This document shows, one piece after another, positions 29,696 to 61,506 of a stretch of DNA of 64,000 bases. Made by a program: the position numbers and the translations under genes. Position 1 is the stretch's first letter, and every line of letters begins with the position of its first letter. The notes beneath the pieces are model-generated. The model searched no databases. It had not been told where the DNA came from and was given only the letters and a program-made list of their open reading frames with translations. This DNA is from Chloroflexota bacterium (GTDB lineage Bacteria > Chloroflexota > Dehalococcoidia > Lucifugimonadales > Lucifugimonadaceae): NCBI GenBank assembly GCA_002719295.1, contig PBHC01000012.1, forward strand, positions 109,930 through 173,929. Reading direction: 5' to 3'.

Positions 29696-30343
29696 CTATT
29701 TACCAGGCATATATCTCCACACAGCAACAACTTTGCCCAAAATACTAACATTATTTGATGGAAAAAACATAGGATCCATTAGAGGGTTTTCAGGTTGTAA
29801 TCTAGTATTTTCTCCTTCTCTAAAAATCCTTTTAAGCGTTGTTTCATTTTCTGAATCGATTTTAGCCGCCACCATCTCTCCATTTTTAGCTTCATTAGTT
29901 TTTTCTAATATAATAGTATCTCCATCTCCTATTAATGCGTCAATCATAGAAAACCCGGAAACCTTAAGTGCAAAAATTTTATCTTCTATGTATGAAAAAT
30001 TCTCAGGAAGTTCTATTGTATCTAAATCATCAATATCCCATCTGCTATCTTCAACTAAAGGGAATGGTTGGCCTGCTGTTATTGTTCCTAATACAGGGAC
30101 CTTTATGTTCTGATTTTTTTCAATATTATTTAGGCTAATACTTCTTGAAACTTCTGAGTCTCTATTCATTAGCCCTTTTTCTTGCAATCGGTCTAAATTA
30201 TATTTCACTACAGAAGTTGAAGAAATATCACAATTATTTTGGATGTCTCTAATTGAAGGTGGATATCCGTATTCTTCAATGTAACTTTGAATAAAATTTA
30301 GAATATCTATTTGTTTTTGTGTTAGAGGTTTAGAGTTTCTCAT
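29696..30343 (-). CDS. lexA: SOS repressor LexA
   Basis: LT.KQ..IL, GYPPSIR wHTH, Ala-Gly cleavage site (TAGQP), catalytic Ser (GFSM) and Lys (TLKR). Confidence 0.96.
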   Translation of the reverse strand: MRNSKPLTQKQIDILNFIQSYIEEYGYPPSIRDIQNNCDISSTSVVKYNLDRLQEKGLMNRDSEVSRSISLNNIEKNQNIKVPVLGTITAGQPFPLVEDSRWDIDDLDTIELPENFSYIEDKIFALKVSGFSMIDALIGDGDTIILEKTNEAKNGEMVAAKIDSENETTLKRIFREGENTRLQPENPLMDPMFFPSNNVSILGKVVAVWRYMPGK

Positions 30344-30378
30344 AATTTCAACATATGGTACATTAATGTCAACGTCAA
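30344..30378 (-). promoter_or_regulatory. Putative sigma70 promoter of lexA (probably leaderless)
   Basis: TTGACG (30378-30373), 17 nt spacer, TATGTT (30355-30350), then 6 nt to the ATG; no SD sequence. Confidence 0.55.
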
Positions 30379-30393
30379 ATCTTATGTCCTCAA

Positions 30394-58602: not shown

Positions 58603-60531
58603 ATGAAAAAAATAGCTATATTTATATTTCTACTATTTATTTTTTCTTGTTCTGATAATTCAGAAGAATCTATCAATAATAATTTAATTGAAGATAATAC
58701 TTCCATACAATTAGAAAATGATAAAGCTGAAGAAAAAATAAATCAGAAAGACCCTAAAGATTATAATAAAAATACACCTTCGCCCTCAGATCATAATAAT
58801 CAAACTTCAGAGACTAAAGAAATATATGATAAATCCTCTGTTATTTCGGTAGATTTCGGCCCTGAATCTGGAAATTATATTAGAGCAAATTATAGAGTAA
58901 AGGAACAATTGGCTAGGCTGCCTTCTCCAATTGAAGCTATCGGATACACAGATTCTATAACAGGAGGGATTTATATTGATGCACAAGGGGTTCCAAATAA
59001 AAACTCAATTATTAATATTGATTTATCTACACTAAAAAGTGATGAATCACGAAGAGATAATTATTTGAGAGGTAGCTCTTTAGAAACAGATAAATTTCCT
59101 AAGGCTGTATTTGAAATAAGAGAAATCGCAGGGTTTGATTTAAGTTCTCTGATTACTTTACAAAAAAATGATTTTCAGATGCAATTGATAGGTGATCTTA
59201 CTATTCATGGGGTTACAAAAAGAAAAACATGGAATATTGATGCTACGTATGAATTGGGAAAACTAAAAGGTAAAGCTTCTCTTTCATTTCCATTTAGCGA
59301 TTTTGATATGGATATTCCTAAACTTTTCTTTATTATTAGCGTTGAGGATAAAATTACACTAGAATTAGACTTTGATGTTTTATTAAGCTTAGACTCTACA
59401 ATAGATCTTACTTCTAAATCAGTTCCTCAGTTTATTTCAGAGCAAATAGGTGCAAATAAACCAAATTCCTTATATACGAATGCTTGGCTATGCGCAGATG
59501 ATAAAACTGTTTTAGTTGATGATCTTTCAACACAAATAGAGGAAACATGGAAATGCTATGTAGATATAGAACTATCCGATGATTCTGTCGTAGTTACTAG
59601 CACAGGTATCCCAAATCATGATTTTCAATCTGGATTAGGCTGTTGTGCAGAAGAAGTAAATTATCAATGGATTATTCCGACAAATCCTCAGATCAATGAA
59701 ACTATTACCATGGCTCCTGATAGAGGAGCTGTGGCTATTACCGTAACGGGAGTCCCAATATTTGGCCCTGAAGAAGGACCTGGGGGTGATGCTGTTGCAT
59801 TGCACTTTGATTATTTTGAAGAGGACAGGCAACCTATAGAAATTGGTGTGTGCGGAGGACATTCTGCTGGAGCTTATTTTCATTATCATTTTGATGCCAA
59901 TTGTATGCATTGGCACCCTGAGGGGACAGGCTTAGATTGGGAAGATTGGGATTATAGGACCTCCTTAGATACTAGCGAACACTCTCCTATAATAGGATTT
60001 GCTTTTGATGGATTCCCCATTTATGGTCCTTATGGCTGGGATTCTTATAAAAATGTTATAGAAATCACGTCAAGCTATAGATTGAAAAAAGATTCTAATG
60101 GATATGGAGGTATAGATGATTGGGAATATATTGAAGGATTAGGAGATACGGATGAATGCAATGGGATTTCAAGTCCTACCCCAGAAGTTCCGGACGGGAT
60201 TTATCATTACGTTAGCTCCATAAGAAATGGAGAAGGAGAAATTGGATTTCCTTATTTTTTACTTTGCTATCATGGAATTCCAGAACAATCTAATTTTGAT
60301 AAAGGAGGAACACAGCAAGGACCTCCACTCAGAAATCAAATGCAAGGAAATCCAAATAGAAGAAGCCAATCTCCTGACTTTACTGAAGCAGCATCTAAAT
60401 TAGGAATTTCTCAGAAAGAGCTATTATCTGCATTAGGAGGCCCGCCGCCTGACTTAGAAAAAGCTGCAGAAGTACTTGGTGTATCAATTGATGAACTAAG
60501 AGAAATCATCCCTCTTCCGCCTAGAAGGTAA
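58603..60531 (+). CDS. Lipoprotein: YceI-like domain + YHYH domain + C-terminal helical repeat
   Basis: Lipobox FSC; YceI (Y.V.EQL, SDE.RRD, GDLTIHGVT); YHYH (CGGH...YFHYH, IIGFAFDGFPIYGPYG, DECNG, YHY); two PD..AA..LG.S..EL repeats. Confidence 0.8.
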   Translation: MKKIAIFIFLLFIFSCSDNSEESINNNLIEDNTSIQLENDKAEEKINQKDPKDYNKNTPSPSDHNNQTSETKEIYDKSSVISVDFGPESGNYIRANYRVKEQLARLPSPIEAIGYTDSITGGIYIDAQGVPNKNSIINIDLSTLKSDESRRDNYLRGSSLETDKFPKAVFEIREIAGFDLSSLITLQKNDFQMQLIGDLTIHGVTKRKTWNIDATYELGKLKGKASLSFPFSDFDMDIPKLFFIISVEDKITLELDFDVLLSLDSTIDLTSKSVPQFISEQIGANKPNSLYTNAWLCADDKTVLVDDLSTQIEETWKCYVDIELSDDSVVVTSTGIPNHDFQSGLGCCAEEVNYQWIIPTNPQINETITMAPDRGAVAITVTGVPIFGPEEGPGGDAVALHFDYFEEDRQPIEIGVCGGHSAGAYFHYHFDANCMHWHPEGTGLDWEDWDYRTSLDTSEHSPIIGFAFDGFPIYGPYGWDSYKNVIEITSSYRLKKDSNGYGGIDDWEYIEGLGDTDECNGISSPTPEVPDGIYHYVSSIRNGEGEIGFPYFLLCYHGIPEQSNFDKGGTQQGPPLRNQMQGNPNRRSQSPDFTEAASKLGISQKELLSALGGPPPDLEKAAEVLGVSIDELREIIPLPPRR

Positions 60532-60575
60532 CAAATAAAAGAGATTTTTTTTAATAAATCTTGTAATTAATTCTG

Positions 60576-60605
60576 TTGACTTAATTAGAACACTTGTTCT
60601 AAAAT
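60576..60605 (+). promoter_or_regulatory. Sigma70-type promoter
   Basis: TTGACT (60576-60581), 18 nt spacer, TAAAAT (60600-60605); AAGGAG RBS at 60623-60628. Confidence 0.7.
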
Positions 60606-60618
60606 GAACATATGTTCT
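60587..60618. promoter_or_regulatory. Two tandem LexA (SOS/Cheo) boxes
   Basis: AGAACACTTGTTCT (60587-60600) and TGAACATATGTTCT (60605-60618) both match GAAC-N4-GTTC exactly and flank the -10 element. Confidence 0.88.
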
Positions 60619-60635
60619 AATTAAGGAGTTTATTA

Positions 60636-61157
60636 ATGACAACGAAATTTTCAGAAAATGTTTTCAGTAATACTGAAGAAACTAAATTATTAACAGATAA
60701 TAATTTGATAAGATCTATAGCCTCAAGCATAATCAATAAAAAAGAATGTCAATATGATGTAGGAGTTGAATGTTTTTATTGCTGGCACGAAGCAATGAAT
60801 GATTTAAGAATATGGACATTAGTTAAGAACAATCATGAATATTCTAAGTGCGCTGTATTTAGTTCTTTGATAATAGAATGCTTGTATCCAGCTGTATTAA
60901 AGATGATTAATAAAGTCAATGAATTTAATAATTTTGATTTTCTTTTTTCAAAAAACCATAATGAAATATCATATGATAAATCAAAGTATGTTTTTTCTAA
61001 TAAATTGGATCATTCTGATAAATTTTTGATAGCAGAAAATATTGATCTATATGGTCAAAACTTAGATTCAATAAATGCTTTAGTGAAAATAAATGTTCTT
61101 AAAAACAGGTACTCTCAAGAATATTTTTATGTTTCTAATAATTGTAATCATATTTAG
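60636..61157 (+). CDS. Cys-containing hypothetical protein, predicted LexA-regulated
   Basis: Strong RBS; C-x7-C-x2-C-x-H cluster near the N-terminus. Confidence 0.75.
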   Translation: MTTKFSENVFSNTEETKLLTDNNLIRSIASSIINKKECQYDVGVECFYCWHEAMNDLRIWTLVKNNHEYSKCAVFSSLIIECLYPAVLKMINKVNEFNNFDFLFSKNHNEISYDKSKYVFSNKLDHSDKFLIAENIDLYGQNLDSINALVKINVLKNRYSQEYFYVSNNCNHI

Positions 61158-61167
61158 GAGTGCTGTA

Positions 61168-61506
61168 ATGACAATGATTGAAAATAATAATTCAGCTTCT
61201 AAAGATTTTTTTCTTGATGATGGCTGTGAATATTCAAAAAGTTGCTTAGAATGCCCTTTGACTCTTTGTAAATATGATGATCCTATCTTGGATAATTCTA
61301 AATCAAAAAATAATAGAAATATTATTATTGCTAATATGAAAAAAAGCAATATGACAAATAAAGATATAGCCGAAACATTGAATATTTCTACTAGAACTGT
61401 TCATCGAGTTTTGAGCCAAGAAAATATTATTAGTCAAAAATTTGTACTAGACCTCAAGAATCAAAATATAATCAAAAAAACTCATTTGATTAGTATGAGG
61501 AACTAA
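61168..61506 (+). CDS. Cys4 metal-binding + helix-turn-helix protein
   Basis: AGGAG RBS before ATG 61168; DDGCEYSKSCLECPLTLCKYDD, then HTH TNKDIAETLNISTRTVHRVL. Confidence 0.8.
   Translation: MTMIENNNSASKDFFLDDGCEYSKSCLECPLTLCKYDDPILDNSKSKNNRNIIIANMKKSNMTNKDIAETLNISTRTVHRVLSQENIISQKFVLDLKNQNIIKKTHLISMRN

Follow-up and report, generated by a model that had tools for sequence, protein, structure and literature searches.

The operon, its promoter and its surroundings

What do two uncharacterised genes do behind a pair of perfect LexA-type boxes, and where did they come from? The question is raised by an operon lying in a 64,000-nt stretch of DNA (hereafter the window; contig C12, positions 109930-173929) of the assembly G000, which totals 1.27 Mb at 30.7% GC and is 81% complete. 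The features concerned are the following.

29696-30343, minus strand: lexA, intact, passing TIGR00498; its own promoter is without LexA box in the genus
30374-30388, minus strand: GACA-N6-TTGAC at the lexA promoter, a candidate ORF2 site adjoining the -35; same position and spacing in 13/13 genus loci
60562-60566, plus strand: TGTAA, 9 nt upstream of the operon -35, within GTAATTAAT; kept in 12/12 genus loci, with diverging flanks
60576-60581, plus strand: -35 hexamer TTGACT, from the sequence; identical in 12/12 genus loci
60588-60599, plus strand: LexA-type box 1, GAACACTTGTTC, between the -35 and -10 hexamers; perfect in 12/12 genus loci
60600-60605, plus strand: likely -10 hexamer, TAAAAT in 11/12 and TAATAT in 1/12 genus loci
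60606-60617, plus strand: LexA-type box 2, GAACATATGTTC, covering the probable start of transcription; identical in 12/12 genus loci
60623-60628, plus strand: ribosome-binding site AAGGAG, from the sequence; conserved
60636-61157, plus strand: ORF1, 173 aa, putative truncated remnant of a terminase large subunit ATPase domain; NCBIfam NF052413
61168-61506, plus strand: ORF2, 112 aa, G-C-x5-C-x2-C-x4-C domain and helix-turn-helix (HTH); candidate phage-derived transcription activator

An earlier note on this DNA had described two exact GAAC-N4-GTTC sites, 18 bp apart, one in the promoter spacer and the other over the start, and both coordinates and sequence agree with it; the spacer between the -35 and -10 hexamers, which contains box 1, is 18 nt long. 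The inverted repeat (arms at 60581-60592 and 60613-60624), the ribosome-binding sites, the two genes 10 nt apart and the presence of lexA in the same window were likewise found as first described. This larger repeat consists mostly of the outer halves of both boxes and their TTAA flanks.

The core of the operon promoter is near-identical in 12/12 genus loci, whereas ORF1 falls to about 49% identity. Summed dN/dS values are 0.24 for ORF1 and 0.18 for ORF2, vs. 0.07 for a neighbour gene that we take to be phoU. The upstream neighbour of the operon differs within the genus: in the window this place (58603-60531, plus strand) is held by a lipoprotein-like fusion of YceI and YHYH domains, and in G029 and G401 by a shorter, YceI-only gene. 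In G403 (L038, C67:4656-8168), lexA lies one gene upstream of the operon.

Contig C19 duplicates the operon region of C12 at 99.86% identity, and any second copy in G000 is therefore likely an assembly duplicate. As a whole, the assembly holds three long near-identical contig pairs (C19/C12, C20/C1 and C17/C11; 15-38 kb, 99.5-99.9% identity), likely reflecting strain or assembly redundancy. As for metatranscriptomes, contigs from four runs cover parts of ORF1 and ORF2, yet they are not taken as evidence of operon expression, since neighbours and promoter are covered too and the contigs may stem from DNA.

LexA boxes and the direct LexA regulon

The window contains three perfect GAAC-N4-GTTC sites vs. 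a chance mean of 0.30, and none of 100 shuffles reached three. Among the 14 perfect sites of the assembly, only the two boxes and their C19 copies are intergenic according to the script labels. A 2002 paper is said to have given GAAC-N4-GTTC as the LexA site of Dehalococcoides. In other genera, 15 of 17 lexA promoters carry a site of this type with at most one mismatch, and a matrix was built of 17 sites taken exclusively from relatives' lexA promoters. In G000, the top rank went to a site upstream of recA and the next to one in a coding region, box 1 and box 2 taking ranks 3 and 6. The earlier assignment of GAAC-N4-GTTC as the LexA operator thus matches the class's own lexA-promoter motif.

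The boxes are also conserved at orthologues, the point on which a check had been proposed: besides the 12/12 genus loci, in 40 of the 44 family loci outside the genus the 1250 nt preceding the first Cys of ORF2 contain one or more perfect boxes, and in 28 they contain at least two. LexA control is well supported by this conservation together with the independent matrix, and repression of the ORF1-ORF2 operon by LexA can be taken as highly probable.

Concerning the rest of the regulon, the lexA promoter of this genus lacks a LexA box in 13/13 loci, the matrix scan of G000 listed no site upstream of uvrA or umuDC, and no LexA box was seen in the umuD promoter. From these absences and the matrix ranks, the apparent direct LexA regulon in G000 comprises recA and the ORF1-ORF2 operon.

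Two minor observations concern lexA itself. Across the genus it appears leaderless or nearly so, since the -35 stands about 30 nt before the ATG (window positions 30343-30380, minus strand) and leaves no room for a ribosome-binding site; the umuD start looks similar. In two genomes of the family, G415 and G416, neither lexA nor ORF2 was matched and neither box nor motif was seen upstream of recA, possibly a joint loss of the two genes.

ORF2 and the head-packaging cluster of Dehalococcoidia

The earlier note had drawn attention to Cys clusters in both proteins. That of ORF2 stood, its four Cys being invariant across 54 diverse homologues; in ORF1, C38 of the C-x7-C-x2-C-x-H pattern is not conserved. 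The predicted structure of ORF2 has a pLDDT of 81.5, and fold searches with it matched the HTH only, with no match reaching E 0.001 and a maximal Z of 6.1. Fourteen fragments of the Cys domain gave no match in Pfam. The protein probably holds a 4Fe-4S cluster or a Zn ion.

ORF2 is found in 253 of 401 genomes of the class (the unpublished genome G244 is counted in all tallies for the class), mostly as a single copy, and in 82/90 family genomes, vs. none among about 134 genomes from other classes of the phylum. Look-alike clusters contain Chloroflexota or tailed-phage proteins, and homologues come from sources named SAR202 and Dehalococcoidia. A tblastn search of 50,697 phage records with one homologue found nothing. 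Among IMG/VR loci with ORF2, 17/27 carry the terL, portal or capsid gene of the cluster described below, and a few resemble other phages. At L157, L158, L172 and L182, homologues are situated on phage-like contigs without these three genes. In an ORF2 tree of 85 columns, several genera and families group, the whole being poorly resolved and the family not forming one clade.

In many relatives within Dehalococcoidia, ORF2 stands between the terL and portal genes of a cluster; when intact, this begins with terS and a small gene ahead of terL and continues after the portal with scaffold, capsid, adaptor and a large tail-like gene. PHROG and Pfam matches for terS, terL, portal, capsid and adaptor establish its identity. 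The capsid gene occurs in 222/401 class genomes, mostly in single copy. Cross-counting it with ORF2 gave 189 genomes with both, 64 with ORF2 only, 33 with capsid only and 115 with neither. In L050, the cluster is flanked by host-type neighbour genes. The ancestral cluster thus shows one trait of gene transfer agents, namely phage head genes that are widespread, mostly in one copy and set among genes of the host. Of the 40 upstream regions of capsid genes fetched, 37 were located and 24 of these have a box. Where the cluster is split and ORF2 stands apart from terL (L050, L051, L052, L060, L062 and L064), ORF2 has a box of its own.

In the family of the window the capsid was found in 0/8 genomes, and in family f2 in 0/9; G000, which is 81% complete, gave no terL, portal, capsid, terS or adaptor match. 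What is conserved across the family is the boxes and ORF2. At the position of terL, other genera have a full-length gene, an N-terminal remnant, a C-terminal remnant or nothing. Read as a history, the capsid was lost in this family and terL was reduced to ORF1 or disappeared, ORF2 and the boxes being retained. In G000, all that remains of this single-copy, class-wide phage head-packaging cluster is the ORF1-ORF2 operon. The earlier guesses of a domesticated prophage switch and of a second-tier regulator both fit ORF2, which would originate from this domesticated cluster and is the best candidate for a second-tier activator.

Decay of the same cluster is also seen elsewhere. In the 1.5 Mb genome G055 (L051, C1:362900-382800), the portal gene is split across two reading frames, its second part apparently fused to the tail-like gene, and no capsid match was obtained in G055, G079 or G133; the portal and capsid state of G055 is a separate decay. 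In family f42 (L013, L026, L027, L028 and L030), the nuclease-side half of terL is kept between tandem boxes and ORF2.

A conserved element beside the -35 region

In promoters of the intact cluster, a GTG[A/C]CA motif is followed after about 8 nt by the -35 (TTGAC), and a LexA-type box occupies the spacer. Of 43 boxed cluster promoters, 39 have the motif, vs. 2-6 in five control windows of equal size placed further upstream, the genomes being related and the counts therefore not independent. Its distance to the -35 is often 6 nt in this family and 6 to 9 nt overall.

In G000, G[AC]CA-N6-TTGA precedes genes at only four sites: umuD, recA, lexA and one MFS gene. Within the genus, for which no capsid match was obtained, GACA-N6-TTGA was found at 13/13 recA, 13/13 lexA and 12/13 umuD loci, the thirteenth umuD locus not having been located by the search pattern. 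Since the choice of a 6-nt spacer was guided by lexA and recA, umuD is the only unprompted prediction. The MFS transporter gene (G000, C7:75035-76207, minus strand; G029, L297) has GACA-N6-TTGAC upstream in both genomes, which makes it a candidate fourth member that may belong to the regulon; it is not among the G402 matches.

Outside the genus, the lexA promoter has the motif at 4/6 loci from other genera of the family plus G428 (G417 and G064 lack it). In other families of the order it is present in 3/5 genomes with ORF2 and in 0/6 without, one regex match in G444 being discounted as it lies downstream of the -35. At recA it was found in 5/10 family genomes and in 0/10 order genomes, some of the latter with ORF2. 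G088, which keeps ORF2, has no SOS gene among its nine pattern matches.

From these distributions we infer that ORF2 binds the GACA element. The element could also be read as the site of another host factor, as a tandem -35 or as an upstream promoter element, with LexA control and phage origin both holding and ORF2 having its targets elsewhere, an explanation that we consider rather unlikely. Its variable spacing of 6 to 9 nt would suit this explanation, as would the genome-wide counts, in which the pattern showed no enrichment relative to control words or to alternative spacers (0-6 matches each, the pattern lying below its control) and the two genomes, G088 and G417, that retain ORF2 with no motif detected at recA. 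A tandem -35 is conceivable where the upstream GACA is part of TTGACA, as at some sites; many others read AGACA, GGACA, CGACA, TGCCA or AGCCA and are not -35 hexamers. What speaks for ORF2 is that it is the only HTH gene found inside the cluster and that the motif goes missing with it: besides the six lexA promoters of ORF2-negative genomes mentioned above, it is absent from the expected window in 2/2 boxed capsid promoters of such genomes (five fetched).

Against a role of ORF2 at this element speak the operon's own promoter, which has TGTAA-N9 in place of GACA-N6, and the retention of the motif in no more than 10 of 44 operon promoters of the family. The TGTAA of the window (60562-60566) is possibly a diverged copy of the activator site YG[ACT]CA, with one mismatch and a longer spacer.

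Proposed mechanism

An HTH in ORF2 and a conserved promoter site abutting the -35 are both features of a class II activator. The reading that we favour, and hold to be somewhat more probable than its rivals taken together, is that the operon is a LexA-repressed relic of the packaging cluster whose ORF2 activates recA, umuDC and lexA after DNA damage. RecA activated by damage would bring about the cleavage of LexA, and the double-boxed operon would open late. ORF2 would then bind GACA beside the -35 and recruit RNA polymerase, amplifying recA and licensing the error-prone Pol V (umuDC) only after strong damage. By resupplying LexA it would also serve as a delayed off switch, in replacement of the lost LexA autorepression. 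In the ancestral cluster, the same parts would have formed an AND gate of LexA release and activator, with positive feedback.

A further-reaching version, which we advance only tentatively, is that in this streamlined SAR202-type genus a phage-derived Cys4-HTH cascade has replaced most of the LexA regulon: LexA would repress only recA and the operon, the Cys4-HTH protein (ORF2) would activate recA, umuDC and lexA, and the former terminase would be a metal-binding partner of the switch.

Binding directly beside the -35 may equally keep polymerase out, and the best structural neighbours of ORF2 include the DeoR and SorC repressors (weak, Z 5-6). Both would suit an ORF2 that represses at GACA sites and shuts the response down late. 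This is very unlikely, since a block of recA, lexA and all particle genes released through LexA would stop the response and its reset; moreover, the best PHROG match of intact-cluster ORF2 is a late activator family (weak, HTH-only, E 1.2e-4).

Origin and fate of ORF1

In the activator reading, ORF1 is a leftover of terL. Its profile is present in 11/12 genus genomes and in 0/48 others. Against 23 N-terminal terL remnants of the family it gave a profile match of 72.8% (E 3.2e-5, 102 columns), and these remnants match intact TerL at 99.8%. An HMM of the remnants placed ORF1 at the top of 1301 G000 ORFs (E 7e-4, the next at E 2.2), and all 13 ORF1 sequences outranked 1313 decoys (1300 shuffles and 13 reversals). 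Compared directly with intact TerL, ORF1 gave a non-significant E of 0.43, so that the link is transitive and rests on the family remnants and on synteny. We nevertheless think it highly likely that ORF1 derives from the ATPase domain of a terminase large subunit.

In a joint alignment, ORF1 is in register with this domain from its first helix through the Walker B strand, and the terminase hallmarks Walker A, Walker B and nuclease domain are all missing. The Walker A column changes from RQGGKNE in TerL to CFYCWHE, the acidic pair (DE) of Walker B is lost and some 20 residues further on the protein stops. It is predicted to be catalytically dead. The only invariant residues are C46-x2-C49-W-H51, C82, C170 and H172. 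Invariant Cys/His have been acquired where the P-loop stood, and the dN/dS of 0.24 indicates that purifying selection still acts. The predicted fold has a pLDDT of 32. A HEPN identity, for which there was an Atlas lead (0.81) and no Pfam match at E 1, was dropped after the terminase link was found.

The purifying selection and the gained Cys/His are what an effector would lead one to expect, with ORF1 as a damage-induced division inhibitor or toxin and ORF2 as its regulator or antidote. Two results make this a distinctly improbable explanation: searches of Pfam (to E 1) and PHROG found no family matching ORF1, and genera g2, g3, g229, g223 and g236 have no terL remnant at all, their boxes directly preceding ORF2. 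The checkpoint or toxic effector supposed in the earlier note therefore finds no support, ORF1 being a degenerate terminase fragment deleted in related genera that keep boxes and ORF2.

ORF1 does match NF052413 (NOV1T2S5) with 310 bits vs. a cut-off of 200, a family named 'terpene biosynthesis-related', a label that probably reflects gene neighbourhood. That the operon is a terpene-biosynthesis gene pair, as this name and the putative ORFs 2-7 kb upstream, presumably carotenoid genes, might suggest, or else neutral debris, can practically be set aside, given the dN/dS of both genes, the nearly invariant promoter core, an upstream neighbour that changes within the genus, the derivation of ORF1 from TerL and the absence of support for the terpene label in the tests run.

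Comparison with known systems

The pieces resemble gene transfer agent (GTA) activators on the one hand and activator-driven damage regulons on the other. LexA takes part in GTA control. The Dehalococcoidia cluster can be seen as a GTA-like kit in which the same set of terS, terL, regulator, portal and capsid stands under LexA-type boxes; compared with the intact kit, the window is at the end stage, no capsid, portal or terS having been found. G000 itself was rejected as a GTA carrier, as no capsid, portal or packaging genes were found in this 81% complete assembly. GafA is the GTA activator of RcGTA (PMC6363796, PMC9638019); it serves a particle of domesticated phage origin, as ORF2 would do in the cluster. 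ORF2 differs from it in being a 112-aa Cys4-HTH protein encoded inside the cluster. G000 differs further in having lost the particle genes, and the proposed targets of ORF2 are SOS genes of the host.

PafBC of mycobacteria and DriD of Caulobacter activate repair genes, including recA, from beside the -35 region; they are WYL proteins acting independently of LexA. ORF2, in contrast, stands under LexA boxes and is phage-derived, and no WYL protein or domain was found in G000.

Titles and abstract openings in the literature searches gave no description of the cluster, of ORF2 or of the motif. If the proposed reading is true, a regulator of a domesticated phage would have been captured stepwise by its host and a core stress network rebuilt on it, and existing genomes would display each stage of the process: intact, split, decayed and fully rewired. 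The class-wide GTA-like element would thereby gain a probable master activator with a known DNA site, and overexpression of ORF2 in cultured Dehalococcoidia with an intact cluster would be a direct test for particles. The reading would also predict gating of the mutagenic Pol V in an abundant ocean bacterium.

Like ORF2, WhiB-like [4Fe-4S] regulators are small proteins whose four Cys, C-x2-C-P among them, precede a DNA-binding part. Their Cys spacing is C-x14-22-C-x2-C-x5-C; that of ORF2 is C-x5-C-x2-C-x4-C, and with no Pfam match for its Cys domain either, a WhiB-like identity was rejected. With ORF2 as query, a phage WhiB model had the highest query TM (0.51) among the 50 BFVD rows listed, at E 0.22.
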